The notes under the pieces are model-generated. The model was not told the DNA's origin and made no database searches. It saw only the letters and a program-made list of their open reading frames with translations. DNA of 64,000 nt from the IMG/VR virus record IMGVR_UViG_3300009551_000042. One strand, given 5' to 3'. This stretch comes from a virus (lineage: Duplodnaviria > Heunggongvirae > Uroviricota > Caudoviricetes). The position numbers and the translations under genes were made by a program. This document shows positions 11,272-64,000 of this stretch, piece by piece. Position 1 is the first letter of the stretch; every line of letters starts with the position of its first letter.

Positions 11272-11275
11272 CTAT

Positions 11276-12735: not shown

Positions 12736-12812
12736 CTGACACTCGCAGAGGCGAACGCCTGCTGCGCAAAAATGGAGAGCCGCGCGCCAAGCGTCTGAAC
12801 AGCGGCAACTAT

Positions 12813-12884: not shown

Positions 12885-12888
12885 CAAC

Positions 12889-12963: not shown

Positions 12964-12969
12964 CCCCGA

Positions 12970-13041: not shown

Positions 13042-13042
13042 T

Positions 13043-13116
13043 GCACCTGAGTCCACCTGGTTGGTGGAAACGATCTGATACGTCGTACGCGGTGAGTTCG
13101 ATTCTCACGAGGTGCA
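13043..13116 (+). tRNA. tRNA-Ile(GAT)
   Basis: D tcca/tgga, AC acgat-ctgatac-gtcgt, T gtgag-ttcgatt-ctcac; acceptor gcacctg/gaggtgc with 7:66 mismatch. Confidence 0.6.
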
Positions 13117-13152
13117 CCCGTCTGCGGGAGGACGTTAAACAGTCCCGTCAAT

Positions 13153-13226
13153 CCTGACGTAGCCCAATTGGCCGAGGCAACCGTCTTAGAAACGGACAGA
13201 TGTGGGTTCGAGTCCCTCCGTCAGGA
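13153..13226 (+). tRNA. type I tRNA whose anticodon loop reads TAG (Leu CUA codon) but lacks a long variable arm
   Basis: C1:G72 acceptor cctgacg/cgtcagg, AC accgt-cttagaa-acgga, 5-nt variable loop, T gtggg-ttcgagt-ccctc. Confidence 0.45.
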
Positions 13227-13241
13227 CTAGTAGCGACTAAC

Positions 13242-13326
13242 GCAAGCGTGGTGGAACAGGCAGACGCAGCGGCTTCAAACCCCGCCGGGCTATCAGCCCA
13301 TGCGAGTTCGACTCTCGCCGCTTGCA
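13242..13326 (+). tRNA. type II tRNA (85 nt); anticodon loop cttcaaa (TCA) or alternative register CAA
   Basis: Acceptor gcaagcg/cgcttgc, T gcgag-ttcgact-ctcgc; anticodon stem imperfect (gg/cc then mismatch). Confidence 0.45.
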
Positions 13327-13332
13327 CAGACC

Positions 13333-13857
13333 ATGAGACGCCGAAGAGCAAACCAACCCGGTCGCAAAACGCTGGTTCTTAGCGCAAGCTACGTGCCCGT
13401 CCGCATTATCTCATGGCGCGACGCAATCAAGATGCGTTGCGAGGACACGGCCGATGTGGTGGCGGAGTACCGCGAGACGGTTAGCTCACCGTCGGTAACG
13501 TGGCGCATTCCGGCCGTGATCCGCGAGCGGCAATTTCACAAGGGCCGCGCTGGTGTCAGGTTTAGTCCGCTGAATGTCTTCAGGCGCGACGGCTACCGCT
13601 GTCAGTATTGCGGCGACAGATTCCCGCCCGACAAGCTCGAATGCGAACACGTTGTCCCGAAGAGCAAGGGCGGGAAGCGCAACTGGGAAAACATCGTTGC
13701 GGCATGCCGCACATGCAACGCCAGAAAGCGCGATAGGAGCTGCGAGGAGATCGGCATGTTCCCGTTGGCCAAACCAGTGCGGCCCAAGTCGCTTCCTGTC
13801 GACAGGCTCGAGGTGCCGCACGAGCGAGCGCCTGAAGAATGGCTCGCGTATTTGTGA
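13333..13857 (+). CDS. HNH endonuclease
   Basis: CQYCG...HVVPKSKGG...N...ACRTCNARK HNH motif; ATG chosen right after the tRNA 3' end (longer 13300 start would overlap the tRNA). Confidence 0.7.
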   Translation: MRRRRANQPGRKTLVLSASYVPVRIISWRDAIKMRCEDTADVVAEYRETVSSPSVTWRIPAVIRERQFHKGRAGVRFSPLNVFRRDGYRCQYCGDRFPPDKLECEHVVPKSKGGKRNWENIVAACRTCNARKRDRSCEEIGMFPLAKPVRPKSLPVDRLEVPHERAPEEWLAYL

Positions 13858-13862
13858 TTTCT

Positions 13863-13945
13863 GGAAAGTAAACCCTGAGTGGTCGGGGAGCCGGTTTGAA
13901 CCCGGTGGCACCGCAAGGTGAGGCGTTCGACTCGTCTGCTTTCCT
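13863..13945 (+). tRNA. tRNA-Ser(TGA), type II
   Basis: Acceptor ggaaagt/gctttcc, AC gccgg-tttgaac-ccggt, variable hairpin cacc-gcaa-ggtg, T aggcg-ttcgact-cgtct. Confidence 0.6.
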
Positions 13946-13951
13946 CAAACT

Positions 13952-25676: not shown

Positions 25677-25690
25677 TCAAAACCTCCGGG

Positions 25691-26079
25691 TGGACCGCCC
25701 GGGAATCGAACCCGGGTCCACGAGACGGAACAGAGGATCTCGCTCACGCGCGTAGTCCGTTTAGAGCCCGGACGGGCTTGACGCCGGGGGGACGGCGCCT
25801 CCACCACCAGTGCCTACTAGAACGTCGATGGAAGGTGCACTGGAACCATCGTCGACAGCTGCCCGTGTATTTGCGCCGTGAGAGCTACTCGGGCTCTCGC
25901 ACCCACGACGGCTTACGCTGCCAGGGGCAGGTAAGCATCACCCTCGTCGGCTTGCGCCTCGAAGGGGACCGCGTTGTCGTTCGCAGTTACGTTTGCTCGC
26001 CGGGATTAACGACTCTCGCGAGCATGAGTCGGCGCGATCAATCCTACATCCACATCCCATGTCGAAACCTGTGCGGCCC
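25691..26079 (-). ncRNA. ssrA: tmRNA (ssrA-like), tag reading frame ANDNAVPFEAQADEGDAYLPLAA-stop
   Basis: Minus strand: 5' GGGCCGCACAGGTTTCGACATGGG (cf. bacterial GGGG...GGAUUCGACGGG); 3' T-arm ccggg-ttcgatt-cccgg plus acceptor gcggtcc pairing with the 5' end including G3-U70; tag ORF at plus 25904-25975 ending LAA-TAA. Confidence 0.7.
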
Positions 26080-28877: not shown

Positions 28878-30509
28878 ATGAAATACCTACAGCACTTCAA
28901 TCCGGCTCGCACGCCGCAGACCGAGCAAGCGTCCGCTAAGCAGGTCCCGAACTCGGCCGGCGGGTTTTCCTTTGCCGTCGACAACTGGAAGCGCCTGGAA
29001 AGGTTCGTGATCTTGGGGTCTGAGGGCGGCAGTTACTACGCGAGTGAGAAGACGCTGACCCGCGAAAGCGCCGCAGCTGTCCTGGCGTGCTGTGCGGAGG
29101 ATGGTCCGCGCGCCGTCAGTTCTGTCGTGGAAATCTCGGACAGCGGCCGGGCACCAAAGAACGATGCCGCTATATTTGCCCTAGCGCTTGCCGCCACGCA
29201 CGATAACCCGAGCGCTCGTGAGGCGGCGCTCTCCGCGCTACCGCGCGTGTGTCGAACCGGGACGCACCTGTTCCAGTTTGTTTCACAGGTCGATCAGATG
29301 CGCGGCTGGGGCAGAGCCCTACGGCGCGGCGTATCGAACTGGTACACGAGCAAGACGCAAGCTGACCTTGCGTTTCAGGTTTGCAAGTACCAGAACCGCG
29401 AGGGTTGGTCGCACGCTGACGTTCTAGCCCGCTGCCACGCGCGAAGCCTCGACCTGAATCCGGTGTTACGTTGGATCGTCGCTGGCATCAACGGGGGCGG
29501 TGAGCGCGCACATTACAGCCGGGAGATGCAGCTGTTTCGTGAGTATCCGGACCCGGGTCCCCTCCCCGAGTTCCTGATCGACTTCGAGGAGCTGAAGCAT
29601 GCTGACGAGAAGCGAACCATTCAGCTGATTCAAAAACACGGCTACACGCACGAAATGATCGCGACCGAGCATAAGAACTCGGCGGCGGTTTGGGAGTCAT
29701 TACTCCCGCGCATGGGCATGACCGCGCTCATTCGTAACCTGGGCAAACTGACCGAGGTCGGTTTACTCAAGCCGCTGAGTGCAGCCGCGCGAACAGTCTC
29801 CGAGCGATTGCAGGATCGAGAGGCCTTGCGCAAGGGGCGAGTCCATCCGATTCAAATGCTCTCGGCCCTCAGTGTCTACGCACAAGGCCACGGCGAGCGC
29901 GGGTCTCTGACCTGGGTTCCCGTTAGCACTGTGACCGATGCACTGAATGAGGGTTTCTATCAGTCGTTCGGAGTCATCCAGCCGAGCGGCAAGCGCCACA
30001 TGCTGGCGCTCGATGTTTCTGGAAGCATGACCTGCGGGCGCATCGCTGGAGTGCCGGGGCTCACGCCGCGCACTGCGTCTGCGTGCATGGCGATGGTGAC
30101 CGCCCGCGTTGAAAAGGAATGGGAGGTATACGGCTTCTCAGATCGCTTCATCAAGCTGGACATCAGCCCGACTCGTCGCCTGGACGAAATTTGCCACTAC
30201 ATGAACCGGTTGCCGTTCAGCTCGACGAATTGCTCGCTACCGATTCAGTTCGCGAGCCAGCAAAAGATGGAGGTCGATCTGTTCTCCGTCTACACCGACT
30301 CAGAGACCTACGCGGGCAATGAGCACCCGCACCAGTCACTGCGCCGATACCGGCAAAACATGGGTATTCCGGCTCGCATGGCCGTGATCGGGATGGTTTC
30401 CAACGGATTCACGATCGCTGATCCTGATGACGCCGGCATGCTGGACGTCGTCGGCTTTGACACAGCGACGCCCGCGCTACTTTCAGCGTTCGCGCGCGGC
30501 GACCTCTAG
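28878..30509 (+). CDS. rsr: Ro60-related protein (Rsr; TROVE domain plus C-terminal vWA)
   Basis: 543 aa; TROVE-like N-terminal region; C-terminal MIDAS LALDVSGSM. Confidence 0.8.
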   Translation: MKYLQHFNPARTPQTEQASAKQVPNSAGGFSFAVDNWKRLERFVILGSEGGSYYASEKTLTRESAAAVLACCAEDGPRAVSSVVEISDSGRAPKNDAAIFALALAATHDNPSAREAALSALPRVCRTGTHLFQFVSQVDQMRGWGRALRRGVSNWYTSKTQADLAFQVCKYQNREGWSHADVLARCHARSLDLNPVLRWIVAGINGGGERAHYSREMQLFREYPDPGPLPEFLIDFEELKHADEKRTIQLIQKHGYTHEMIATEHKNSAAVWESLLPRMGMTALIRNLGKLTEVGLLKPLSAAARTVSERLQDREALRKGRVHPIQMLSALSVYAQGHGERGSLTWVPVSTVTDALNEGFYQSFGVIQPSGKRHMLALDVSGSMTCGRIAGVPGLTPRTASACMAMVTARVEKEWEVYGFSDRFIKLDISPTRRLDEICHYMNRLPFSSTNCSLPIQFASQQKMEVDLFSVYTDSETYAGNEHPHQSLRRYRQNMGIPARMAVIGMVSNGFTIADPDDAGMLDVVGFDTATPALLSAFARGDL

Positions 30510-41254: not shown

Positions 41255-41872
41255 ATGACCAAACCGCTGTTCGCTGTCGAGTATCGACAGCAAGGAACGA
41301 CCGAGAAACGCAACGACGCCCGCGAAGAGCGGAAGAAAACCCAGGTCACGCCTTGGACGTGCCTCGTTGAATGCTTTCAGAAGCAGAAGCGAACGCCCGT
41401 ATCTTTTCTGTTTTTGGCTGCGCGCAGGCGAACCTGGCTGACCCCCGAAGAGATCGCCGAAGAACTAAACCGCCTGTCCTCAGCAGGCGAGAATCTAACT
41501 GCCGCCGACGTCCATTTGTTCACGGTCGCGGCCGAGCGCCGACTGAAGCGCCGCGGTACCTACGCACGGCGTTTCAACACCTTTCTCGAATTGGCTGACG
41601 TCGAGATCAAAAAGGAACGCGAGAAGCTCGCTGCGGCCGAGAGCGAAACCGATCGCGCCATTCGCGAGCAAGCCGAGGACGTTCAATACGCCTATCACAT
41701 GACCTTCCAGGAAATCGGGTGGCAGCGCGGGTCATCGTGGCAAAGAGCGCAACAAGAGGTCAACGAGGCAATGGCAGAGCTTCACGGCAAGCTCAAGCAG
41801 TCAGCCGGCAGGGCTCGCAAGTCGAACGAGAACATCCGCAAGTTCCTCGATTCGGCTGGGGTTCACCCGTGA
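41255..41872 (+). CDS. hypothetical protein
   Basis: ORF 205 aa. Confidence 0.55.
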   Translation: MTKPLFAVEYRQQGTTEKRNDAREERKKTQVTPWTCLVECFQKQKRTPVSFLFLAARRRTWLTPEEIAEELNRLSSAGENLTAADVHLFTVAAERRLKRRGTYARRFNTFLELADVEIKKEREKLAAAESETDRAIREQAEDVQYAYHMTFQEIGWQRGSSWQRAQQEVNEAMAELHGKLKQSAGRARKSNENIRKFLDSAGVHP

Positions 41873-42387
41873 ACTGTGAGTCCATTTTCGTCGATTATCG
41901 CCCTTTGGTGAAGGTGCTGGTGGGCCAGTTCAAGCGGACGCTTGCGGCCGTCGACTGGGATGACCTCTTCAGTGAGGCCAATGGTGCGCTTTGGAAGGCC
42001 TACCTGACCTATCGCCCACAGGCTGGCATGACATTCGGTCAATATGCACGAATGCTAATTCGTCAGCGCCTGTGCGTCATCTATGCGCACGAGCGACGGC
42101 GCGCTCGGCTCGGGGATCCGATTGTGGAGAACTCCGATGGGGACCGCATTGTCGACGAAATCCCAACCTACGACGCCGACCACGTCGAAGCAGACGAGCT
42201 TGCGCGCGTGATGCACGAAGCGATGTCATGCCTCCCAATCAAAGAGCGCCTCGTATTGCGGATGCGCTTCTATGGGGAGGGAATGACGCTCGAACTCGTG
42301 GGCGAGGAGCTGGGATTCACACGTGAGCGCGTACGGCAAATCGAAGAATCAGCGCTAGCGAAGCTGCGCAGAAAGGTGGACTGGTGA
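41869..42387 (+). CDS. sigma-70 family RNA polymerase sigma factor (regions 2 and 4)
   Basis: DDLFSEANGALWKAYLTY (region 2) and LELVGEELGFTRERVRQIEESALAKLR (region 4); GTGA coupling start. Confidence 0.7.
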   Translation: MNCESIFVDYRPLVKVLVGQFKRTLAAVDWDDLFSEANGALWKAYLTYRPQAGMTFGQYARMLIRQRLCVIYAHERRRARLGDPIVENSDGDRIVDEIPTYDADHVEADELARVMHEAMSCLPIKERLVLRMRFYGEGMTLELVGEELGFTRERVRQIEESALAKLRRKVDW

Positions 42388-53655: not shown

Positions 53656-53967
53656 TTATTTGCGCTGGTCGAGCTGCATTTCGGTCAGCACCTCGCGCAA
53701 GAGCACATCATCACCGCCTAGGCGCTTGCGATGCTTGCGCACGGCGCGAAACGTCTTCCCGAACTCTGTAAGGGCTTGCTTTTCGGTGATGCCAACATTG
53801 AGCAAAGCAAATGCAGTCGCCACGTGAGCGACAGTAACCGCGCTAAGGTATTGCTCCGGAGACTCGTCGGCGTAGTCAGACATTGCATCGGCGATCTCGT
53901 AACCGAGCACGATCCGATCGGCCGCTGCATCTACCTTCGCCCAGTCAATGGATGACTTGGCTGTCAA
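53656..53967 (-). CDS. hypothetical protein
   Basis: TTG start with GGGAGGG RBS; the longer ORF-track N-terminus is rejected. Confidence 0.4.
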   Translation of the reverse strand: MTAKSSIDWAKVDAAADRIVLGYEIADAMSDYADESPEQYLSAVTVAHVATAFALLNVGITEKQALTEFGKTFRAVRKHRKRLGGDDVLLREVLTEMQLDQRK

Positions 53968-54946
53968 GGATGACCCTCCCGTCAATGATCGGATGGAACT
54001 GCACCCAACCGAGTCCAGTTGCGCGCTCGATGGTTGCCGTTGAGAAGCCGTGCGTCCATTCGCGGCGAGCCTTCCAGCGCTTCGCGTAGCTGAACGCAAG
54101 CGCGTCGTAATCGCCGAGCCAGCCGCATGTCATGCCCACGTGACGCTCACCGTCGGTCGTGCCCGAGTATTCGATCGCAGCTCTGTGCGTGTGACCGAAC
54201 ACAACGCAATGACCCGTCGCGGCTAGTGACTGGCTCACTGAACGTGAGCCGGCGGCCCCGTAGTCATGACAGAACCGGATGTGACCGATCTGGAGTTGTT
54301 CACCGTAAGGAATCCACTGCCACCCCGGGCGGCGTTCGAATTCGAGCAAGTCAGGGATCGAAGTGACCCCATGCAGCTCGGGGGCATTTTTCGCGATGTG
54401 CTTATCAAGGCGATACTCGTGGTTCCCGCCTAGGAACTTGACCGGGCCGGCGAAGGCCGCTTGCAGCTGGTTGCAGGCCTTGACCCCTGCCCCGATCTCG
54501 TCAGCGAACGAAAGCTGACGCGCGGGGTCTTTGGTGAACTCGGAGATGGAGTAGCAGTCGAGGAAGTCACCGAGGCACACGAGTGTGTCAGGCTTCCAAG
54601 CGCGGCAAGCGTTGAGAAAGACATTCCAGGCGCGTTCGTCGTGGTAAGGGACATGGACGTCCGGGCAGATGATCACGCGCTCGATGGCGCTTTCTGGTTC
54701 GGCAACAAAGCGGCGCGTGCTCGGTAGGCGCCCTGCGGCGCGCTGCTGGGCTCGGCTCTGCCGCTCACGACCCGTCGAAACGTGGTCGACCGGTGACCCG
54801 CACTTGAGTCCCTTTTCACGGGCTCGCTCGAACAACGCACGCAACGCGGCGGGTGTGGTCTGGAGACTGAGAGCGGCCTCCCGAACCGACCCGCTACGCC
54901 CCAACAGTTTGATCGCCCTGGTTACCCGTGGATCTTGGTAGGTCAC
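53945..54946 (-). CDS. calcineurin-like metallophosphoesterase (Ser/Thr phosphatase-like)
   Basis: GDFLDCYSISEF, GNHEYRLDKH, GHTH blocks. Confidence 0.7.
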   Translation of the reverse strand: MTYQDPRVTRAIKLLGRSGSVREAALSLQTTPAALRALFERAREKGLKCGSPVDHVSTGRERQSRAQQRAAGRLPSTRRFVAEPESAIERVIICPDVHVPYHDERAWNVFLNACRAWKPDTLVCLGDFLDCYSISEFTKDPARQLSFADEIGAGVKACNQLQAAFAGPVKFLGGNHEYRLDKHIAKNAPELHGVTSIPDLLEFERRPGWQWIPYGEQLQIGHIRFCHDYGAAGSRSVSQSLAATGHCVVFGHTHRAAIEYSGTTDGERHVGMTCGWLGDYDALAFSYAKRWKARREWTHGFSTATIERATGLGWVQFHPIIDGRVILDSQVIH

Positions 54947-55008
54947 GGCGGAAACCCTAAGTTTCCTGGCTGATTCGGTGCTAGTATGCTCCTGGGTAAT
55001 AAAAGAGC

Positions 55009-55037
55009 TTGACTAGGAAACTCAGATTAGGCATAGT
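55009..55037 (+). promoter_or_regulatory. promoter cassette variant TTGACT-N17-CATAGT-N7-ATG
   Basis: Same architecture as eight downstream copies. Confidence 0.5.
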
Positions 55038-55044
55038 GGGTGAC

Positions 55045-55227
55045 ATGAACGCGACGCAATCCACCCGCTACGTGATCCGGTTCGCGGACGGTGAACTGGC
55101 CAAGAACTGCAACGGCGTGCGCACCTTCAAGAGTGCCGCGAACGCGGAGCGCGAACGCGCGGGCAAGGCTCGCCGCGACATCGTGATGGGTCCCCGATAC
55201 GCGACCGCGAAGGTTGAGCCTCGCTGA
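55045..55227 (+). CDS. hypothetical small protein (MNATQ...)
   Basis: Shares its start region (catgaacgcgacgcaa) with the gene at 57676. Confidence 0.45.
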   Translation: MNATQSTRYVIRFADGELAKNCNGVRTFKSAANAERERAGKARRDIVMGPRYATAKVEPR

Positions 55228-55294
55228 GACCAGGCGGCGGCCCCCCGGACCGGAGCTTCGAAAGAGGCCCGGGCTTGAGGCGTTAGAGGAACCC

Positions 55295-55504
55295 ATGTAC
55301 CAGCCCGGCTACCAATCCGCGATCCGTGTTTCTGTCGCTCCCAATTGCTGCAACCCGTACGTGTGTACCAAGTGCGGCGCGAGCGGCGCGGGTCCGTACT
55401 GCTGCGATCCTGATGACAGCCAGTCCGAGCTAGCGCGTCGCGCATTCGGCCCGCATCCGATCCGGCAGCTGCACACCGAACCCCTGACACCGGGGCACCC
55501 ATGA
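55295..55504 (+). CDS. Cys-rich small protein
   Basis: GAGGAA RBS; CCNPYVCTKCG...YCC. Confidence 0.45.
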   Translation: MYQPGYQSAIRVSVAPNCCNPYVCTKCGASGAGPYCCDPDDSQSELARRAFGPHPIRQLHTEPLTPGHP

Positions 55505-55854
55505 ACATCCCCCGGCGCACCGAAGCCGAGCAACTAGCGCTAAACGAGCGCATCAAAAACACCATCACCCCGAGCAAGTTGCGCTCGCTCAAGCGCGGTC
55601 TTCGCGACGCTCGCGCGGAATACTCGCGGTGTCGGGCGGAAGCGCTAGCCGCCGGGCGTGCCATGCGCGCCGAGCCAAAGCGCGGACGCTTGTTGCTCGA
55701 CTACGAGCGCGCGATCGGGGCTGCCGTCATGGCGCGTCACGACGTCAAACACATGGCCAGCATCATTGCTGCTCGTGAGCCATACGTGCAGGTGGGCGCG
55801 AAGTGGTCCGCCCGCGGGCTGGCCAACGTGCGCCGCGCGAATGCGAATCGGTAA
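55501..55854 (+). CDS. hypothetical basic protein
   Basis: ATGA coupling. Confidence 0.5.
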   Translation: MNIPRRTEAEQLALNERIKNTITPSKLRSLKRGLRDARAEYSRCRAEALAAGRAMRAEPKRGRLLLDYERAIGAAVMARHDVKHMASIIAAREPYVQVGAKWSARGLANVRRANANR

Positions 55855-55876
55855 CCGACCACTAGAACCGTGACAA

Positions 55877-56101
55877 GTGAGCGAGCCAATGGCCAAAGGT
55901 GACCCCCAAGCAATCAAGCTGCACTACCGCAAGAGCGATACGAACCGCCGCCCGATCTGCGGCGCGCGCTCTGGCAACATGACGTTCAGCACCACCAAAC
56001 GCGCCGAGGTCGATTGCATCCGCTGCCTGGCGATGCTGACCAACAGCACAAGCTTGCTCATGGGCGCCCCGGGGCGCCCTGTTGCGCCCCGAAGAGATTG
56101 A
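55877..56101 (+). CDS. zinc-finger small protein
   Basis: PICGARSG...DCIRC. Confidence 0.45.
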   Translation: MSEPMAKGDPQAIKLHYRKSDTNRRPICGARSGNMTFSTTKRAEVDCIRCLAMLTNSTSLLMGAPGRPVAPRRD

Positions 56102-56267
56102 CGTGCTGCGCCGCTGCGAACTGGCCGAGCGTTTCACTAGCCCGACTGTTTCGACAACGAAGCCGCGTCCGAGCACGTTCGTGCTGCTCAAAGACATGGG
56201 CCTGATCTGTTGGGCGCCCGGCTGGCGCCTGACCGAAAAAGGCCGCGAAGCCCTCAAGAACGCCTGA
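56082..56267 (+). CDS. hypothetical protein
   Basis: ORF 61 aa. Confidence 0.4.
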   Translation: MRPEEIDVLRRCELAERFTSPTVSTTKPRPSTFVLLKDMGLICWAPGWRLTEKGREALKNA

Positions 56268-56278
56268 GACAGCCACCA

Positions 56279-56542
56279 ATGCGCGAACTAATCATCACCC
56301 TCCCCACCGCGTCAGACCCGCTCGGGCGCTGGCTCGAAGCGAACCACGTGGCGATCAACATTCACGTGTCCATGGGCAAGTACCATATCGAAGCGCGTTG
56401 GAAAAAACTGCATTCGTACAGCGACAACGAGGGGGAGCACAGCGAGATCTGGAACGTCAACCGGTCGGGCACCGACCCGGCGCTGACGTTCGGCCTGGTG
56501 CTCGAAGCCGTGGCAAAGAAGATTGGAAAGCCGCTACCGTGA
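56279..56542 (+). CDS. hypothetical protein
   Basis: Internal ATG MRELIITLP... Confidence 0.5.
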   Translation: MRELIITLPTASDPLGRWLEANHVAINIHVSMGKYHIEARWKKLHSYSDNEGEHSEIWNVNRSGTDPALTFGLVLEAVAKKIGKPLP

Positions 56543-56844
56543 GCTACGACCCACCGGAAGACGCCCCCACCGACGCGCTTGATCCCAAGCGAAAAAAGTT
56601 TCTCGTCACCGCCAAGCGCTGTGATGAGTGCCTGTTCTCTAAGGCGAAACTGGTTGACGATAGCCGGCAGCAGCAAATCCTAAACAACTGCCGCGAAACA
56701 GGGAGCTACTTCCTGTGTCACAAGGGCACGCTGCGCGGTGTAGCCGTCGTGTGTCGCGGGTTCTTCGACACCGAGGCAAACCAGGCTTGTCAGGTAGCTG
56801 ATAGGCTTGGGCTAGTTGAATTCATCGATCCGGAGGAAGTATGA
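56539..56844 (+). CDS. hypothetical Cys-containing protein
   Basis: GTGA coupling. Confidence 0.5.
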   Translation: MSYDPPEDAPTDALDPKRKKFLVTAKRCDECLFSKAKLVDDSRQQQILNNCRETGSYFLCHKGTLRGVAVVCRGFFDTEANQACQVADRLGLVEFIDPEEV

Positions 56845-57290
56845 GCAGCATCGAACGTGATACGTTTTTGACCGTGAGCACACATGGTGACGCAGAAAGC
56901 GCCAAGCGCTTCATCGGTGGAGGCTTTTACAGGGTTGTGCCGTCCGGTCCGGACCCTCGCGACCCGGGCAAGACGATCTTTCGCATGTATCGGACGGCCA
57001 AGGATTGGGGCGATGAAATCCGCAAGCGGGTGGCCGCTGGTGAGAGTCAGCTAGATTTGGCGCAGGAGTTCAATATCAGCCAATCGATCATTTTTCGCAC
57101 CGCAAACGGCACGTACGCGATCAGCGACGAGCGCGAGCCGGACCAGGGTAGCGAACGGGAAAGCGCCATGCGTGACCTGATCACAGATTGGCGTGACAAG
57201 GCGGACAACTGCCTAGCCGACCAGCCAGCGGCTAGCCAAGCCTACGACCATTGCGCGGCGCGGCTGGAAGACTTGCTCGCTACCAAATGA
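56841..57290 (+). CDS. hypothetical protein
   Basis: ATGA coupling. Confidence 0.55.
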   Translation: MSSIERDTFLTVSTHGDAESAKRFIGGGFYRVVPSGPDPRDPGKTIFRMYRTAKDWGDEIRKRVAAGESQLDLAQEFNISQSIIFRTANGTYAISDEREPDQGSERESAMRDLITDWRDKADNCLADQPAASQAYDHCAARLEDLLATK

Positions 57291-57592
57291 TCATCGTTCG
57301 GCACCCCGGAACCATGACCATCAAGCAAGACCTCGAAGCCATCGAGGCCCTGATCCGCAAGGCGCCCCATGAGGCGACGAAACACCATGAGGTGAGCATC
57401 GCCCTGCAAGCGCTGGAGCGCGTCCAGCGGGCAGCCACCGGCCCGCTCGCGAGCGCCTTTGCGGACGCCTATCGGGAAGCCCAAGCGAAGGGCAACGACA
57501 CCGCCCGGTGCGAGCTGTTAGCCCTCGTCGCGGTCAGCGGGGCCATTGTCGAGCGGTACAGGGTGCTCATTCCGTCGACCTCTCGAAAATAG
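57287..57592 (+). CDS. hypothetical protein
   Basis: ATGA coupling. Confidence 0.5.
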   Translation: MIIVRHPGTMTIKQDLEAIEALIRKAPHEATKHHEVSIALQALERVQRAATGPLASAFADAYREAQAKGNDTARCELLALVAVSGAIVERYRVLIPSTSRK

Positions 57593-57639
57593 TTAGAGCC
57601 GTTTTGATGCTGGATCGTGAGTGCTGTGCATTTATCTGA

Positions 57640-57668
57640 TTGACCATTGGACTCAGATAAATCAGTAT
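57640..57668 (+). promoter_or_regulatory. promoter cassette TTGACC-N17-CAGTAT-N7-ATG
   Basis: Repeat-family member. Confidence 0.5.
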
Positions 57669-57675
57669 CCACGAC

Positions 57676-57879
57676 ATGAACGCGACGCAAAACGAAGTGA
57701 ACCGGGTAGCGGCTGAGATCATCGCCAAGAATGCCGCCCGTGAGCACGGGGCGCACCACGTACTTCGCATCGCTTCCCAGGGCTTCAGCCCTTTCCACAG
57801 CCCGGAACTGAACCGCGCCGGCCGTGAGCTGGCGCGACGTCACCCTTTCGTTGCCCACCTCTACCCCGAGGCCCGCTAA
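57676..57879 (+). CDS. hypothetical small protein (MNATQ...)
   Basis: Immediately downstream of a promoter cassette. Confidence 0.5.
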   Translation: MNATQNEVNRVAAEIIAKNAAREHGAHHVLRIASQGFSPFHSPELNRAGRELARRHPFVAHLYPEAR

Positions 57880-57881
57880 AC

Positions 57882-58283
57882 ATGAACGGTTACCAATACG
57901 CAGCCCTCGCCCCTGGCGAGTCACTCCAAAGCCCCGAGGCCTGCGACTGCTGCGGCCGCGAAGGCCTCAAGAAGACCATCAAGCTCGTGAACCCTGAGGG
58001 GCGCGCCGTTTGGTTCGGTGTCGGTTGCGCCGCGCGCGCGCTCAGTGAACCCGAGAGGCTCGTACGTAAAGCTCGCGACGAGCAGATCGAAACCGCCGAT
58101 AAAGCACAGCGTGATGCCGCCAAGGCGGCTCACGACGCCGAGCAAGGGCGCTTCAGCGCCTGGCTTCTAGCCACCGTGGGGGCGTTTGCTGACTGGGACG
58201 GCCGCCCCAACCGCGCAAAGCAGCTCGAAGCCCTGGGCGGGTACCGGGCAGCCTTCAACGCCTACCGTGAGGCCCAATCGTGA
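57882..58283 (+). CDS. hypothetical protein (CxCC-containing)
   Basis: ORF 133 aa. Confidence 0.55.
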   Translation: MNGYQYAALAPGESLQSPEACDCCGREGLKKTIKLVNPEGRAVWFGVGCAARALSEPERLVRKARDEQIETADKAQRDAAKAAHDAEQGRFSAWLLATVGAFADWDGRPNRAKQLEALGGYRAAFNAYREAQS

Positions 58284-58480
58284 AACCCTTCCGCGTCAGC
58301 GTACTGGCCGCCGATGGTGTCACCTGGGCGGCCACAGCCATCGTGGTCGTGGGTCCTGACGGACCCATCAAGGTTAGGCTTTTCTGGATCACCGCTGACG
58401 GCGTTCCCAGTCCGCCCACTACAGACGCTTGGCTTGACCTGACGGGCGCCGCTCTGATGATTCATAACAAATCTGATTGA
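58280..58480 (+). CDS. hypothetical protein
   Basis: GTGA coupling. Confidence 0.45.
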   Translation: MKPFRVSVLAADGVTWAATAIVVVGPDGPIKVRLFWITADGVPSPPTTDAWLDLTGAALMIHNKSD

Positions 58481-58505
58481 CGCCACAACTCACATAAACC
58501 ATACT
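58477..58505 (+). promoter_or_regulatory. promoter cassette TTGACG-N17-CATACT-N9-ATG
   Basis: Repeat-family member. Confidence 0.5.
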
Positions 58506-58514
58506 CACCTCATC

Positions 58515-59081
58515 ATGAACAAAGACGAATTCGCCAAGGCTCTCAACTGGAACCCCAAGAACGTCTGGGCTCGCCTACTGGCTCTCGGGCTTCTGGACAA
58601 CTGCAGTCGTTGCGGCGGCTCGGGGAACTACAGCCGCTGCGCCATGTATGGAACCACCTGCTTCAAGTGCCGCGGTTCAAAGTTCCAACTCCCCCGCCTC
58701 ACGGGCAAGCTGGCGCGTCTGGTGGCTGAACGTGTCGAAGCTGGCGGGCTCGTTGAGTACTTCCTGAGGCAGGAACAGATCCGCAAGGCAAAGGCTGAGC
58801 TTCCGGCGCTGCTAGCCCAGGCTGAAGCCTGTTACTACGTCATTGGTAAGCCGTACTCCGCCGCGAGCATGGCCGGCAACGTCACCCCTGAACTACTCGA
58901 CCTGCAGGAGCGCAATAACCGGCTCTACTGGGGTCACGGGATCAGCCCGACGTGGAACCGTCCGCAACCGGTTGGCGTTCGTGAGGTCAAGGATATGGCG
59001 GAGCGCGGACAGTGTCAGGCTGATTGGGCTGCCGATCGGATTCGCCTGCTGATCCAGGATCTTGCCGCCCCTGTCGGCTGA
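58515..59081 (+). CDS. zinc-ribbon protein
   Basis: CSRCGGSGNYSRC...CFKCRGSK. Confidence 0.55.
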   Translation: MNKDEFAKALNWNPKNVWARLLALGLLDNCSRCGGSGNYSRCAMYGTTCFKCRGSKFQLPRLTGKLARLVAERVEAGGLVEYFLRQEQIRKAKAELPALLAQAEACYYVIGKPYSAASMAGNVTPELLDLQERNNRLYWGHGISPTWNRPQPVGVREVKDMAERGQCQADWAADRIRLLIQDLAAPVG

Positions 59082-59176
59082 ATTCGAGTCCACCCGCCAG
59101 GCTGCCTGATAGGCATAGCACTCAGCCCTGTTTATGATTCTGGACAACGCCCGGGACCCTCGACTAAAAGGGTCCC

Positions 59177-59620
59177 ATGGCGCAACAGACGACCACACAA
59201 CAACTGATAAACACGATCGTAGAAACGCTCAATCTGCTGGTGGAAACCGCGCGCACTGAGGAACAGGAGAACATCGTTTCGCTATTCACCTCCCGGGCGA
59301 GCGCACCCAAGAAAGGGAAGCCCGGACCTAAGCCGGGACGCAAAGCCGTGCGGACGGCAGCTCCGAAGCCCGTCAAGCGCACCAAGCAGCCCAAGCGCTC
59401 TGAGGACGAAATCAACGCGACGATCAAGCGCATGAGCACGTTCCTCACCAAGCACCCCAACAGCAGCTCCAAGCAGATTCAGCAAGCAACTGGGCTCACC
59501 GCTGCCGAGCTGCAGTTCCCCTTCCGTAAGATGAAGGAAGCGAAGATGCTGCGCTCCAAGGGCGAAGGCGTCAACACCACGTACAGCGTGCGCGCGGCTG
59601 CAGCTGCCTCGGAGGCATAA
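59177..59620 (+). CDS. DNA-binding protein, basic AT-hook-like region plus winged-helix
   Basis: KKGKPGPKPGRK; paralog of the next gene. Confidence 0.55.
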   Translation: MAQQTTTQQLINTIVETLNLLVETARTEEQENIVSLFTSRASAPKKGKPGPKPGRKAVRTAAPKPVKRTKQPKRSEDEINATIKRMSTFLTKHPNSSSKQIQQATGLTAAELQFPFRKMKEAKMLRSKGEGVNTTYSVRAAAAASEA

Positions 59621-59752
59621 CCTGGCGGTGGATTAGGTGGGCTGCGTCGAGAAAATCGGCACGGCCCACCGCCATTTACCCGAAATCATAATTCTCGTCA
59701 GATTTCATGAGCATTGACACCGGGCGTTGCCCCCGGGTAATGAAACCGTCTC

Positions 59753-60169
59753 ATGAGTGCTATCGAGAAACTGAGGGATTTCCTGGAGGCGTTTGAGGAG
59801 GAGTGTCGCGCTGGCTACGAGCTAGACCTGCGGGCGGCGCTGGGGAAGCCGCGTAAAGCGGCACCGAGAACCCGCGTGACTAATGAGGTCATGAAGGAAG
59901 TCACGAGCCGTCAGCCGTCACGGACTCAGCGGGCGCAGCCGGCTCAGCAAGCCACTCTACCCCGCCGCGACCCCACCGAGCTGCAACGCATCACCGATAG
60001 CCTGCTGACCTACATAAAGGATCACCCGTCGGAGCGCATCGAGCAGATCTCTGACGGCATGGGGGTATCCACGAAAGAGCTAAAGCTACCGATGCGTTAC
60101 CTGAAACAACAGAAGCAGGTGACCCAAAAGGGCGAGCGCCGCGCCGCGACCTATGCCGCCAAAGGGTGA
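59753..60169 (+). CDS. winged-helix DNA-binding protein (paralog)
   Basis: C-terminal wHTH similar to the previous gene. Confidence 0.55.
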   Translation: MSAIEKLRDFLEAFEEECRAGYELDLRAALGKPRKAAPRTRVTNEVMKEVTSRQPSRTQRAQPAQQATLPRRDPTELQRITDSLLTYIKDHPSERIEQISDGMGVSTKELKLPMRYLKQQKQVTQKGERRAATYAAKG

Positions 60170-60173
60170 AGCC

Positions 60174-60941
60174 ATGCGCTTCTGGCGCCCAGAGGCCGAT
60201 CTAGTGCTCGTTGAGCACTACGGAAAGCGTCCGCCTAGTGAGATCGCCAGCTTGCTAGGGCGCTCGACGGCGGCCGTGAACAATCGAGCTTCGCGCATCG
60301 GGATAACGACTCGGGAACTATGGAGCGCGAAGGAAGAAGCAACCCTACGCGCTCTGTGGGGCTCTGAGCCCGTCGAATCGATCGCTAAGAGGCTCTCACG
60401 CACCCCGGTGGCTGTATGCCTGAAGGCGTCGTTAGTAGGCCTGCGTGCAATGCCCCGACAGGGCGAAGAATCGCTGACCGATGCGGCGCGGCGGTGCAAC
60501 TTTGACGCCGTCACTCTGCGAAATCTGCTCGTTCGCGCGGGGGTCAAGCGGGGCCCGTCTGGGCTTTTCGATTGCTTCGACGTGGATCTAGCGGTTGAGG
60601 CCTACCTCAAAACCCAGCCAATCCACGTCCATGCAACGAAGCGTCGCATGGTTGGCGCGCTGCTCAGGCGCTGGATCGTGGCTGCAATGCAGCACACGAA
60701 CATCGTGATACCGCCGAGGCCACGCAAGCACAAGTTCTGGCGCCTGACCGATGAAACCGTCGATGAGGTGCTGGTCTGGAGGGACTCGCTTGAGTCATTG
60801 ACCGCGGCCTCTAAGCGCCACCGTCGGGACCGTGCGAGGTCGAAACGAAAGCTGATTGAGGCTCAAATCAAGCTCTTTCACTTTCACAAGACCGATTGGG
60901 TCCTGAAAACAGACGCGGATCGCGTTCTGAAAAATAGTTAG
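60174..60941 (+). CDS. DNA-binding protein with tandem HTH-like repeats
   Basis: Two W...E...L......IA..L.R......R repeats. Confidence 0.5.
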   Translation: MRFWRPEADLVLVEHYGKRPPSEIASLLGRSTAAVNNRASRIGITTRELWSAKEEATLRALWGSEPVESIAKRLSRTPVAVCLKASLVGLRAMPRQGEESLTDAARRCNFDAVTLRNLLVRAGVKRGPSGLFDCFDVDLAVEAYLKTQPIHVHATKRRMVGALLRRWIVAAMQHTNIVIPPRPRKHKFWRLTDETVDEVLVWRDSLESLTAASKRHRRDRARSKRKLIEAQIKLFHFHKTDWVLKTDADRVLKNS

Positions 60942-60984
60942 AGCCGTTTTGATGCTGGATACATGCAACGCGCATTTTATCTGA

Positions 60985-61013
60985 TTGACGACACCACTCA
61001 GATAAATCATAGT
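60985..61013 (+). promoter_or_regulatory. promoter cassette TTGACG-N17-CATAGT-N7-ATG
   Basis: Repeat-family member. Confidence 0.5.
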
Positions 61014-61020
61014 CCCTTAC

Positions 61021-61284
61021 ATGAACAAGACGAACCGCGGCGCCCTGATTGCGAAGACCTTCGGTGAGACCTCGCACTATCAGGTCGGTGAAAGCCTGAC
61101 CGTCAACGACTGCAAGATCCTCAACGCCGTTGCGGCTAAGCTGGTTGAGTTCGGCGCCGCTAGCATCGAGCGCCTCCAGAGCGCATGCAAACTAGAGAAA
61201 ATCTCCGTCCAGTGGGCGATCTGCTGGCTCGGTGCCCGTTGCGGTACCGCTGAGATCTACTGGCTCCCCGAGTTCGAGGATTGA
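61021..61284 (+). CDS. hypothetical protein
   Basis: Promoter-proximal start. Confidence 0.5.
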   Translation: MNKTNRGALIAKTFGETSHYQVGESLTVNDCKILNAVAAKLVEFGAASIERLQSACKLEKISVQWAICWLGARCGTAEIYWLPEFED

Positions 61285-61646
61285 TGGAACTGAAAATTCG
61301 CGACGGGTGGCGGGTCGCAAGGCCCGCTGGCTTCTCAGGCTTCGGTATGGGCGCCCCGTGGCGTGAGGCTGAGTGTTGGGAGGTTACGGTTACCGAGATC
61401 AAGACCGCGAGCATTCGCCGAACCTTCCGCGTTCAGGGTGAGCTGATCGCCCAGATCCATCCGGAACGCTGGTGCCTCGACAGCTCCACGATGCTCCCGA
61501 CCGAGGCGGAGCCAGTGCCGGGTGTTTACGTGGGAGGGCGCGAGTTCAATGCGCTGGGGGCGGCGCGCGATGCTGCGCGGGACCTGGTGACATTGCTCGG
61601 CGGGAAGATGTTTTTCCAAGACGTCAGGCTGTGTAAATTCGCATAG
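61281..61646 (+). CDS. hypothetical protein
   Basis: ATGA coupling. Confidence 0.5.
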   Translation: MMELKIRDGWRVARPAGFSGFGMGAPWREAECWEVTVTEIKTASIRRTFRVQGELIAQIHPERWCLDSSTMLPTEAEPVPGVYVGGREFNALGAARDAARDLVTLLGGKMFFQDVRLCKFA

Positions 61647-61682
61647 TTAGAAGAAATCGACCGAGACCCAAACAAATCTGGT

Positions 61683-61711
61683 TGACCAGTGGCATCAGAT
61701 AAATCATAGTC
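61683..61711 (+). promoter_or_regulatory. promoter cassette TTGACC-N17-CATAGT-N7-ATG
   Basis: Repeat-family member. Confidence 0.5.
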
Positions 61712-61717
61712 CCTCTC

Positions 61718-62125
61718 ATGCAAACGCAAATCATCCTCTGCAACGCCGACCAAATCCGCATCGAGTTTTCGCACGTGGCTGTCCGCGGCATCGAGCACCA
61801 GGGTTCGGTCTGGTTCAATGTCTCCGGCGGTAATGCCGTGGTCATTGACCGCTACTGCAGCGGGCGCCGCAAGTGCCACGCCTACCGCCAGGGCACATTG
61901 ACCGATGCTACCCTGGCCGCCGATGCGAAGCTGGTCGAGATCATGACCACCAAGGCTCAGGAGTGGCTCGCGACCGCTGGCCAGGACATCGAGGCCAAGC
62001 GGATCGCCGAGCTGGACCAGGCCGTGATTGACGCCGAGGAGGTTCTTCGCAACGCTTTGGCCGCCGTGGAGGCCGCTCGCGCTATGGTGAGCGAGGCCGA
62101 AAAGAATCGCCGCGCGATCGGCTAA
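61718..62125 (+). CDS. hypothetical protein
   Basis: Promoter-proximal start. Confidence 0.5.
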   Translation: MQTQIILCNADQIRIEFSHVAVRGIEHQGSVWFNVSGGNAVVIDRYCSGRRKCHAYRQGTLTDATLAADAKLVEIMTTKAQEWLATAGQDIEAKRIAELDQAVIDAEEVLRNALAAVEAARAMVSEAEKNRRAIG

Positions 62126-62131
62126 AACTGG

Positions 62132-62160
62132 TTGACAACATCAGTCGCTTACGCCATACT
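62132..62160 (+). promoter_or_regulatory. promoter cassette TTGACA-N17-CATACT-N7-ATG
   Basis: Repeat-family member. Confidence 0.5.
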
Positions 62161-62167
62161 GCTTCCT

Positions 62168-62689
62168 ATGACGAACACCGCAATTGCTCAGGCCGTCGAA
62201 CCGCTCCGCGCTGACGCTATGGATCGCGCCCGCAAGGCCGCTGGCATGCTGGCTGAAGACACTCTCAAGGATCAGGCCGCGCACCCCGAGCAATACACCT
62301 ACCCGATGGGCCTCGGAAACTCCGCGTGGAAGATCCAGAAGGCTCGCCGGGATCGCTTTCTGTCCCTGGTGACCACCAAGTCTGACTATGTTCCCGGGAC
62401 CGGATACGTCGAGAGCTACACCCGCGACGAGGAGAAGATCGCGGCCTTCATTGCCGCCGCGGTGGAAGCGGCCGGGCTCGCCTACACGGCTTTCATTGAG
62501 AAGCTCGAAAGCAAGGTGGGCGCACATTCGGCTGCCACCCTCGAAGGGTCGCACGTCTGGGGTTACAGCGTGCTGACGGTCACCAAGGCGGACGGCTCGG
62601 TGGAGCGCTGGAAGACGCAACAGATCGTCAACGTGAGCGTCCATGGCCTACTTTTCAACCAGTGGCCAAGCCGCAAGATGAAGGGCTGA
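62168..62689 (+). CDS. hypothetical protein
   Basis: ATG 7 nt after the -10 element; the longer 62132 ORF start would cover the promoter. Confidence 0.5.
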   Translation: MTNTAIAQAVEPLRADAMDRARKAAGMLAEDTLKDQAAHPEQYTYPMGLGNSAWKIQKARRDRFLSLVTTKSDYVPGTGYVESYTRDEEKIAAFIAAAVEAAGLAYTAFIEKLESKVGAHSAATLEGSHVWGYSVLTVTKADGSVERWKTQQIVNVSVHGLLFNQWPSRKMKG

Positions 62690-62729
62690 GGGGCGCAAAA
62701 TAAATCGACGTGCAACCGTCTAAATCTGA

Positions 62730-62758
62730 TTGACGGTTGCACTCGGATAGTCCATACT
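62730..62758 (+). promoter_or_regulatory. promoter cassette TTGACG-N17-CATACT-N7-ATG
   Basis: Repeat-family member. Confidence 0.5.
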
Positions 62759-62765
62759 GCTTCTC

Positions 62766-63020
62766 ATGACGAACAGCAACACCATCCACCTGCAGGGAAT
62801 CGGCCTCGTGAACGCGGTTACGGCCGCCGAGCTGACCATCGGCACCCGTACGATCTGGAATTACGGCTATGTGGCCGTGGTCCAAGCCATCAAGCCCAAG
62901 GGTAAGCAGTCGATCGAGGTGACACTCATCACCGAGGGTAGCGGCCACGTGGGCAACCGCGTTTTTCGCAAAACCCGCCTCGTCGGCATCGTGCGAAATA
63001 AATCGACCACGGCCACCTGA
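62766..63020 (+). CDS. hypothetical protein
   Basis: Promoter-proximal start. Confidence 0.5.
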   Translation: MTNSNTIHLQGIGLVNAVTAAELTIGTRTIWNYGYVAVVQAIKPKGKQSIEVTLITEGSGHVGNRVFRKTRLVGIVRNKSTTAT

Positions 63021-63027
63021 AATCTGA

Positions 63028-63056
63028 TTGACAGACGGACTCGGTTAACACATACT
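63028..63056 (+). promoter_or_regulatory. promoter cassette TTGACA-N17-CATACT-N7-ATG
   Basis: Repeat-family member. Confidence 0.5.
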
Positions 63057-63063
63057 CCCTCAC

Positions 63064-63261
63064 ATGAACAAGCCGATGACCCCCGCCGCTCTCCTCACCG
63101 CCGCTATCGCCCTCATCGAGAGCGATTCGATCCGCGCCTGGGCCAACGGCCAGCGCCATGCGTTCTTGTACATCGCCAAGAGCTGGCGCAAGCATAACAG
63201 CTCGCGCAACGATCCGACCGCGTTCGCTACCTACATCACCGCCGTCGCCCTGGGAGCCTGA
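63064..63261 (+). CDS. hypothetical protein
   Basis: Promoter-proximal start. Confidence 0.5.
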   Translation: MNKPMTPAALLTAAIALIESDSIRAWANGQRHAFLYIAKSWRKHNSSRNDPTAFATYITAVALGA

Positions 63262-63264
63262 TCC

Positions 63265-63555
63265 ATGATTACCGCAGGAACCAACGTCAAGATCCTCAAA
63301 GGCTGCAACGCTCGCAACATCCGGAAGGGAACCACGTGGCATGTCCGCGAGGTGCAGCCAATGGGGGCAGAGTACAGTCATCAAGCCCGCGTGGTCCTAA
63401 CCCACGGCTCCCGCGTGCTCACCTTTTGGGCGCGTCACCCCAACCGCCTGAACGATGCGACTGTGCGCCTGAACGATGGCAGCCCTAACTACACGATCGA
63501 AGTCAAGGCGCTGGCGCCTGGTGAGCTGGGGCCCGGACAGATACGGATCAAATAA
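63265..63555 (+). CDS. hypothetical protein
   Basis: ORF 96 aa. Confidence 0.5.
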   Translation: MITAGTNVKILKGCNARNIRKGTTWHVREVQPMGAEYSHQARVVLTHGSRVLTFWARHPNRLNDATVRLNDGSPNYTIEVKALAPGELGPGQIRIK

Positions 63556-63582
63556 ATCGACCGCGGGCCCCATCAAATCTGA

Positions 63583-63611
63583 TTGACACAACCGCCCACA
63601 TAAATCATACT
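63583..63611 (+). promoter_or_regulatory. promoter cassette TTGACA-N17-CATACT-N7-ATG
   Basis: Repeat-family member. Confidence 0.5.
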
Positions 63612-63618
63612 ACTTCTC

Positions 63619-64000
63619 ATGACGAACCAAAACCCCATGGAAATGCTCCTCGCTATCGGTCACAGCGTCGGCCCTGCCGTCGAGAACGACAACCGCGCCG
63701 AGCTGCGCACCAACGGCAAGCACTCGATCTCCCTCAGCCTGATCGCTGGTGACTGGCGCGTCAGCTGCTTTCCTTGCGGCGCCGATGGTTTGCCCGACTA
63801 TGAACAAGACCCGGTGTTCTGCCGCATCGTGGCGGCCGATGTGGCTCACGCGGTTTTCCGTGGCGAGTGCCGCGCCCTCTACTGCCGTGCCGATGACATG
63901 CGCCTCGCCATTGGGAGCGTGTACGACTCGATCAACAGCCTCAAGAGCTGCCGTGACAACGAAGTCCAGAAGGAAGCGGCCACCCTGGTGCGCACCATCC
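63619..64000 (+). CDS. hypothetical Cys-rich protein, 3' partial (runs off window)
   Basis: MTNQNPMEMLLAIGHS...; open to the window end, so absent from the ORF track. Confidence 0.5.
   Translation, partial: MTNQNPMEMLLAIGHSVGPAVENDNRAELRTNGKHSISLSLIAGDWRVSCFPCGADGLPDYEQDPVFCRIVAADVAHAVFRGECRALYCRADDMRLAIGSVYDSINSLKSCRDNEVQKEAATLVRTI

Follow-up and report, generated by a model that had tools for sequence, protein, structure and literature searches.

The window analysed here, a 64,000-nt stretch (IMG/VR record IMGVR_UViG_3300009551_000042; G+C content 0.60) of an uncultured soil phage of about 112 kb, carries about 23 small genes arrayed rightward between 55 and 64 kb, and nine of these stand directly behind a copy of the same short cassette. 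We propose from their sequence that these cassettes are σ70-family promoters fused to the ATG startcodon of the downstream gene, that their transcripts would be leaderless mRNAs, and that together they probably form an early battery of small genes read by the host sigma factor. In the proposed mechanism a cassette would consist of an A-rich box, TTGAC(N), a free 17-nt spacer, CA(T)A(C/G)T and a 7-nt pyrimidine-rich discriminator ending in C, followed by the ATG. RNA polymerase would start at the A of the ATG, the resulting mRNA would have neither 5' leader nor Shine-Dalgarno (SD) sequence, and the ribosome would bind the 5'-terminal AUG directly, with A+C-rich and unstructured first codons (mostly AAC or ACG) keeping the AUG accessible. 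With no intrinsic terminators between the units, the SD-less genes would be translated poorly from read-through RNA, and output would follow each gene's own promoter. Nine or more such units (11–15 in the relatives) would drive small ORFan-type genes beside a divergent junction, an arrangement which makes a host-sigma-dependent early battery the most likely assignment.

Cassette copies and their conservation in related phages

All nine copies lie on the plus strand, with TTGAC at 55009, 57640, 58477, 60985, 61682, 62132, 62730, 63028 and 63583, and follow the motif TTGAC-N18-CA(T/G)(A/T)(C/G/A)T-N7(9)-ATG (Table 1). A preliminary description of this DNA had listed the same nine, with one coordinate off by a single base (61683 for 61682). 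Its CATA(C/G)T form of the -10 box applies to most copies but not to that at 57640 (CAGTAT), and its distance of 7–9 nt from -10 box to startcodon comes down to 7 nt for all but the copy at 58477, which has 9 nt. The sequence ataaatcgac, said to precede the cassettes often, is exact 5' of three copies (62700, 62998 and 63552) and partial 5' of two (agaaatcgac at 61652, aagaatcgcc at 62102), while the MNATQ N-terminus is indeed common to the genes at 55045 and 57676. Eight matches to TTGAC-N18-CATAST with at most one mismatch were found where 0.79 were expected, and none of 100 shuffled sequences reached eight. A matrix scan of both strands of the 64 kb scored the nine copies at 38.3–56.4 bits and the runner-up site at 3.1 bits; as the matrix was derived from the same nine copies the separation is partly circular, but it still shows that the 64 kb holds no further copies. 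The family is sharply delimited, being confined to the plus strand from 55009 to 63583.

Table 1. Position and structure of the cassettes and of other features (window coordinates unless another locus is named)
Feature	Coordinates	Strand	Description
Cassette 1	54999..55047	+	TTGACT-N17-CATAGT-gggtgac-ATG; no AAATCTGA box
Cassette 2	57630..57678	+	ATTTATCTGA-TTGACC-N17-CAGTAT-ccacgac-ATG; second MNATQ gene
Cassette 3	58467..58517	+	AAATCTGA-TTGACG-N17-CATACT-N9-ATG; 188-aa CxxC protein
Cassette 4	60975..61023	+	TTTTATCTGA-TTGACG-N17-CATAGT-cccttac-ATG; 87 aa; orthologue L102 8525
Cassette 5	61672..61720	+	AAATCTGG-TTGACC-N17-CATAGT-ccctctc-ATG; 135 aa
Cassette 6	62122..62170	+	TTGACA-N17-CATACT-gcttcct-ATG; 173 aa, phrog_4687
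Cassette 7	62720..62768	+	AAATCTGA-TTGACG-N17-CATACT-gcttctc-ATG; 84 aa
Cassette 8	63018..63066	+	AAATCTGA-TTGACA-N17-CATACT-ccctcac-ATG; 65 aa
Cassette 9	63573..63621	+	AAATCTGA-TTGACA-N17-CATACT-acttctc-ATG; gene exceeds window end
Putative non-cassette promoter	59141..59179	+	TGGACA-N17-CTAAAA-N7-ATG; same N17/N7 geometry; winged-helix-like 147-aa protein
Putative non-cassette promoter	59714..59755	+	TTGACA-N17-GTAATG-N10-ATG; MarR-like 138-aa protein, then phrog_323 regulator
AAATCGACC box	61654..61662	+	26-30 nt upstream of TTGAC; common to window, L102 and L107 lineages
Further AAATCGACC copies	62702-62709, 63000-63008, 63554-63562	+	
GC-rich hairpins	window 62710-62750; L102 10530-10570; L107 10545-10580, 11873-11907		11-14-nt loops hold A-rich box and -35
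30-nt exact repeat AAAATAGTTAGAGCCGTTTTGATGCTGGAT	57586-57615 and 60931-60960	+	spans TAG stops of upstream genes
Phage sigma-70-family factor	41719/41869-42387	+	Sigma70_r2 and r4; regions 2 and 4 only

Through homologues of the protein behind cassette 6 (173 aa) we reached two other assemblies of the same phage (L100 and L101) and two related uncultured phages, L102 (an 87-kb contig, with a NAMPT 80% identical) and L107 (a 105.8-kb contig); for the relatives' contigs the analysis covered pieces of about 20 kb. Proteins identical to those of two window open reading frames (ORFs) are recorded on a 112,077-bp JGI contig. The 11 cassettes of L102 read AAAATAGATA-TTGACA-N17-CATA(C/G)T-N7-ATG, the 15 of L107 have the same form with AAATAGTTA replacing AAAATAGATA, and L068, a metagenome contig of 1 kb that shares its sample of origin with L101, holds two with the window-type AAATCTGA box, giving 37 cassettes in four loci. 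No such cassettes were present in the more distant relatives L104 (a 106,028-bp contig) and L106 (a 63,359-bp contig), and L068 was the one metagenome contig with two copies of the exact window-type pattern. Single matches to the window-type cassette in 44 viral contigs and in eight genome contigs were taken as chance, with no prophage or host found among the latter; one match to the L102/L107-type pattern in viral contigs lacked a second cassette and was not counted as a relative, and L055 was set aside as AT-rich and unrelated. A megablast search of the region against 50,697 phage records gave no match, and protein-level matches were 27–47% identical and spread over phages of many hosts, which indicates that there is no cultured relative. 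The L100 and L101 assemblies, which are independent of each other, both stop no more than about 10 nt from window position 64000; the reason may be an assembly break caused by a repeat, or a genome terminus just past cassette 9.

The spacer is 17 nt and TTGAC is invariant in all 37 cassettes, while the distance from -10 box to ATG is 7 nt in 32 (86%), 6 nt in two, 8 nt in one and 9 nt in two. The -10 box is mostly CATACT or CATAGT, with four of six matches to TATAAT and a C rather than T at its first position; its A2 and T6 hold in every copy, although both were selection criteria of the scan. We compared 13 between-lineage cassette pairs whose downstream proteins are homologous, and identity was 99% in the -35 hexamer and 88% in the -10 hexamer, compared with 32% in the spacer, 31% at 11–30 nt upstream of the -35, 52% in the discriminator and 50% in the first 45 coding nucleotides. 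Two hexamers at fixed spacing with free sequence between them are, at the level of sequence, the footprint of a σ70-family promoter, and conservation restricted to the hexamers does not fit a recombination site, an RNA element or the relic of a duplication. The cassettes combine a TTGACA-like -35, a 17-nt spacer of free sequence and a -10 box with A2 and T6, and sites with at least 10 of 12 matches to the σ70 consensus are limited in the 64 kb to the cassettes and one intragenic-looking site at 9838 on the minus strand. An alternative -10 box within the spacer, ATAAAT, was rejected: with it the spacer would shrink to 11 nt, and the relatives lack this sequence.

The sequences around the hexamers differ by lineage or by copy. 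An A-rich box abuts the -35 and is lineage-specific (AAATCTGA in the window, AAAATAGATA in L102, AAATAGTTA in L107), with the AAATCGACC box further upstream. The A-rich box could by its position be an UP-element subsite; equally, the A-rich and AAATCGACC boxes could be sites for a regulator. The dyad ATTTATCTGA-N13-TCAGATAAAT, in its 9–10-bp form (A)TTTATCTGA-N13-TCAGATAAA(T), is perfect only at 57640 and 60985, where it spans the -35 and spacer as a 10-bp and a 9-bp inverted repeat, respectively; it is partial in other cassettes and absent outside cassettes, and at 57640 and 60985 it is a possible candidate operator. Four of the 37 cassettes have an 8–13-bp GC-rich inverted repeat bracketing the A-rich box and the -35, none of them with a U-tract, whereas cross-paired controls gave repeats of at least 7 bp at 1.8%. 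Predicted fold energies of these four hairpins are −18 to −30 kcal/mol (z −2.7 to −4.9), the one at cassette 7 being formed by GTGCAACC and GGTTGCAC (ΔG −26.5, z −4.9). The stems at L102 10551 and L107 10564 differ in sequence and keep their pairing, and both lie upstream of genes starting with ATG-ACG-AAC-GCG-AAA. An element described earlier as 28 nt long does recur exactly at two gene ends, but its exact length is 30 nt; it begins with AAATAGTTA, the box abutting the -35 in L107, and was rejected as a terminator or hairpin, since it is unstructured (z = 0 to +1).

Cassette 1, the first putative rightward promoter of a divergent junction, stands before the MNATQ gene of 60 aa and an SD-linked operon of seven genes extending to 57592. 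On the minus strand of this divergent intergenic region (54947–55010) there is a CATACT (54993–54988) and a GGAAAC-ttag-GGTTTCC hairpin, the latter just before the GTG of a metallophosphatase gene (53945–54946), and the CATACT site may be a leadered leftward promoter with the same type of -10 box. At another divergent junction, a promoter-like site at 27657 on the minus strand, TTGACG-N17-CACTCT-N10-ATG, is conserved at L045 5781 (plus strand), with GACACT as the hexamer in this relative and gcggtctcATG retained. Cassette 2 has orthologues with CAGTAT/CACTAT-ccacgac-ATG at L107 3575 and L102 14046. Three putative DNA-binding proteins (59177, 59753 and 60153) are encoded in the middle of the array, behind the non-cassette promoters.

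Predicted leaderless expression

It is strongly supported in silico that the cassettes are functional promoters with transcripts starting at the ATG or within 1–2 nt of it, because of the fixed 17-nt spacer and 7-nt distance, the conservation of the hexamers only, the lack of SD pairing and the unstructured 5' ends. The A of the ATG is the eighth base after the -10 box, and the base before it is almost always C, making C-ATG-A near-invariant; the context C(-1)A(+1) at this distance is a favoured start for RNA polymerase. The leaderless transcripts postulated in the preliminary description, with starts about 0–2 nt before the ATG, are thus backed by geometry, conservation, absence of SD sequences and low structure, all of them read from the DNA.

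The SD analysis covered the 23 genes of the region with public gene calls. In eight of the nine cassette genes of the window the predicted energy of the anti-SD duplex in the 20 nt upstream was 0 kcal/mol or higher, compared with −1.0 to −9.5 (mean −5.1) kcal/mol for 12 operon-internal genes of the same region and a mean of −2.8 for random 20-mers. ATG is the startcodon of every cassette gene, even though GTG was permitted in the scan. Over their first 36 nt the 37 predicted transcripts are 75% A+C and have a mean fold energy of −2.6 kcal/mol, versus −7.6 for windows taken at random from the region (p = 1e-13) and −5.7 for the starts of internal genes (p = 6e-4); of the 37 genes, 19 have AAC and eight have ACG as second codon. 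At three places in L102 (8540, 10001 and 14046) the public gene calls begin within the promoter and lengthen the ORF, by a GTG in the spacer, an ATG just 5' of TTGACA or the TTG of TTGACA itself; the correct starts follow from the geometry of the cassettes.

ORFs lying upstream have their stopcodons within the cassette that follows, as with ORF 58280–58480, whose TGA is part of the TTGAC of cassette 3. Read-through RNA would leave the cassette genes without a ribosome binding site, which suggests that translation of each gene is tied to its own promoter. There was no excess of intrinsic terminators (12 found, 11.7 expected). Fusion of promoter and ATG appears to be lineage-specific, because in other phages the genes distantly homologous to that of the 173-aa protein have normal SD leaders; in L083–L096 the homologous gene has an ordinary leader, with an SD sequence visible in several of these loci.

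The view expressed in the preliminary description, that such an arrangement is uncommon for σ70 promoters, was overstated. In Deinococcus, leaderless expression from a -10 box 6–7 bp before the ORF has been confirmed experimentally (PMC12340547), leaderless genes make up more than 20% of the total in Actinobacteria and Deinococcus-Thermus (PMC3160421), 192 start sites fall exactly on startcodons in Bradyrhizobium (PMC4842269), and SigA-like promoters of Cluster O mycobacteriophages (PL1, PR2 and PL2) have been predicted to be leaderless from sequence (PMC4351075). In Caulobacter, leaderless translation is determined by the identity of the AUG, zero leader length and startcodon accessibility (PMC8459731), and in mycobacteria an ATG or GTG at +1 is sufficient (PMC4633059).

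Sigma factor and alternative explanations

The host primary sigma factor is the more likely reader of the cassettes, because they have a textbook -35 and spacing and the window offers no other strong consensus promoters from which infection could start. Arrays of small ORFans next to divergent junctions are typically early genes dependent on the host sigma factor. The competing possibility, which we regard as unlikely, is that the same leaderless architecture is read by the phage's own sigma factor, making the array a middle-type class that is silent until this factor is made; such a reading would offer a simple way of keeping 9–15 promoters off in a lysogen. The factor, already noted in the preliminary description at 41869–42387, is a genuine σ70-family protein. 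Its region 4 aligns best with RpoS, SigA and RpoD, and the region 4.2 helix TRERVRQIE matches the helix with which σ70 and RpoS read the -35 (TTGACA), while region 2.4 is altered (IRQRLCV versus IRQAITR), including at the residue which σ70 genetics connects with base -12. Such a combination of a retained -35-reading helix with a changed region 2.4 would suit the near-invariant C at -12 of the 37 cassettes in three lineages with randomised spacers. The cassettes are also almost the only TTGAC-N17-NAnnnT sites in the window, and hence the obvious targets for a sigma factor reading TTGACA, and when another repeated bipartite motif was sought, as a candidate promoter class for the phage factor, only GC-rich noise came up. 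However, assigning the cassettes to the phage factor would leave no good host-type promoter in the 64 kb to start infection or to express the sigma gene itself, the position of the small-ORFan array beside a divergent junction is that usual for host-sigma early genes, and non-consensus bases are likewise conserved in the early promoters of T4, which depend on the host sigma factor. No close relative of the factor was found in IMG/VR, and the 50 loci with distant sigma factors hold no cassette arrays. In a more far-reaching and rather doubtful form of this alternative, the minimal phage factor would read TTGACA/CAnnnT promoters hard-wired to AUG as a private, SD-independent channel of transcription and translation in a Gram-negative soil host; only cassette-initiated transcripts would then be translated, with read-through RNA silent, and one sigma gene would switch a battery of 9–15 genes on or off, for example in lysogeny.

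Two further explanations were weighed. The repeats could be mainly boundary modules for recombination or regulation, shuffled in the manner of promoter-early stem-loop (PeSL) cassettes or serving as arrays of repressor operators such as the phiC31 CIRs or L5 stoperators, with most of the genes' transcripts arising at a few upstream promoters and the proximity to the ATG a by-product of tight packing. Gene content between the cassettes does differ among the window, L102 and L107, through insertions, a relocated gene and paralogues, upstream ORFs end within cassettes, lineage-specific boxes (AAATCTGA, AAAATAGATA and AAATAGTTA) flank the -35, the 9–10-bp dyad is found in two or three window copies and 8–13-bp hairpins in four of the 37 cassettes, and PeSL cassettes provide a precedent (PMC2839356, PMC4122927). 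Nevertheless, we consider this explanation improbable: recombination homology would not keep two hexamers 17 nt apart yet randomise what lies between, nor would it hold the ATG at a distance of 7 nt from the second hexamer in 86% of the copies or purge SD-like sequences, and read-through mRNA would give these genes no ribosome binding site. A shuffling role is moreover compatible with promoter function and not an alternative to it. That the similarity is the relic of a recent tandem duplication of genes with their upstream units, without a function of its own, is more improbable still. Although two cassette genes share MNATQ together with 57 nt upstream, and window copies share the spacer sequence ACTCAGATAAAT, most of the cassette-driven proteins are mutually unrelated, and orthologous cassettes in front of proteins only 31–86% identical have kept 88–99% of the hexamers and lost the rest.

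Several points also weigh against the interpretation we prefer, that of leaderless early promoters read by the host sigma factor. The C at the first position of the -10 box (35 of 37) and the C or G at the fifth depart from the TAnnnT of a primary sigma factor, and as these departures are kept across lineages a different sigma factor is possible. Transcription could begin one base earlier, at the C, which would give a 1-nt leader, and the assignment of the genes to an early class is inferred by analogy. Cassettes of the same genome are related by duplication, so that the copies are not independent, which the between-lineage comparison mitigates. Finally, leaderless translation in E. coli reaches only about 10% of the leadered level (PMC4633059).

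Phage context and comparison with known systems

The window also encodes NAMPT, a serine recombinase, a DNA methylase, a VapE-type primase, DnaN and an RNA ligase, as well as a Ro60/TROVE protein with vWA domain (28878–30509, plus strand), near which no Y-RNA-like family was detected at Rfam gathering thresholds. At 8527–13946 (plus strand) and 25688–26079 (minus strand) it has 21 tRNA genes, many with anticodons for A/U-ending codons, and a one-piece transfer-messenger RNA (Rfam RF00023, 88.8 bits) with predicted tag ANDNAVPFEAQADEGDAYLPLAA, a set that fits a phage with lower G+C content than its host. A 768-aa gene similar to F5/8-type-C tail fibres contains five to nine copies of a 31–38-nt imperfect repeat (6399–7203, plus strand), which have spacings in multiples of three (63, 69, 126 nt and longer) and encode a repeated peptide motif.

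Indications of the host are weak and conflicting. At the protein level the neighbours are phages of Myxococcus and of Proteobacteria, for the AAA_24 ATPase the closest are Myxococcus phages, and the named relatives of the NAMPT are from Polyangiaceae, Myxococcales and Vicinamibacteria. The stretch at 7801–8182 (plus strand) encodes a small membrane protein and, after it, a lipobox protein of 72 aa (LVAGC; 7964–8182); by their sequences the two may be a holin/spanin-type lysis pair, and the lipobox protein beside a membrane protein weakly suggests a diderm, Gram-negative host. In L068 (1–1012, minus as read) the two AAATCTGA-box cassettes come directly after the C-terminal part of an HpnH-like radical-SAM protein (DUF3463), and this protein fragment shares 66–75% identity with its named relatives, which are from Xanthobacteraceae, Tardiphaga and Nitrobacter. 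As L068 is probably another part of the window phage or of a sister phage, the HpnH-like gene would be an auxiliary gene of the hopanoid pathway. The cassettes themselves hint at a host that translates leaderless mRNAs well.

If confirmed, these phage contigs of roughly 87–112 kb would represent compact natural batteries of leaderless genes built from a standardised promoter-ATG module. They would allow correction of gene starts where automatic callers extend ORFs through the promoter, provide a natural set of 37 promoters with free spacers for the study of start-site choice and leaderless translation, and pose the testable question of whether a -10 box with C at -12 is read by a phage sigma factor with a σ70-like -35 helix.

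Phage mRNAs starting at the AUG are known from the PRM-cI transcript of lambda and from the Thermus phage φYS40. In lambda this concerns a single regulatory gene, and φYS40 is AT-rich, with middle and late promoters reported to be without a -35 box. Many strong host-sigma promoters, each with one to three small early genes, are found in the host-takeover module of SPO1 and the early gene sets of T4 and T5, but those units have leaders with strong SD sites, unlike the cassettes described here.

The PeSL cassettes of T4-like phages, repeated promoter cassettes which flank ORFans (PMC2839356, PMC4122927), resemble those of the window in being small repeated units with a strong σ70-like promoter, in their association with ORFans and in the variable gene content between relatives, and by this analogy a PeSL-like role in gene shuffling is possible. 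They carry a terminator stem-loop and an SD site, whereas here a hairpin is limited to four of the 37 cassettes and brackets the -35 instead of preceding it, and the SD site is missing, the promoter being fused to the ATG. The promoters of the Cluster O mycobacteriophages number three per genome, show ordinary diversity and belong to phages of an actinobacterial host, compared with 9–15 or more homologous cassettes per genome, and weak hints of a Gram-negative host, here. The closest bacterial parallel is with the leaderless genes of Deinococcus-Thermus and Actinobacteria, and also of Caulobacter and Bradyrhizobium, which share the -10 box 6–7 bp before the start, the lack of an SD sequence, the 5'-terminal AUG and the misplacement of starts by gene callers (PMC12340547, PMC3160421, PMC4633059, PMC8459731, PMC4842269). 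The phage cassettes differ from these in having CAnnnT in place of TAnnnT, in the near-perfect TTGACA that is always present, and in being a near-identical repeated unit in a phage. The proposed mechanism is a known one; its form here, in an uncharacterised phage lineage, is unusually uniform and multi-copy.

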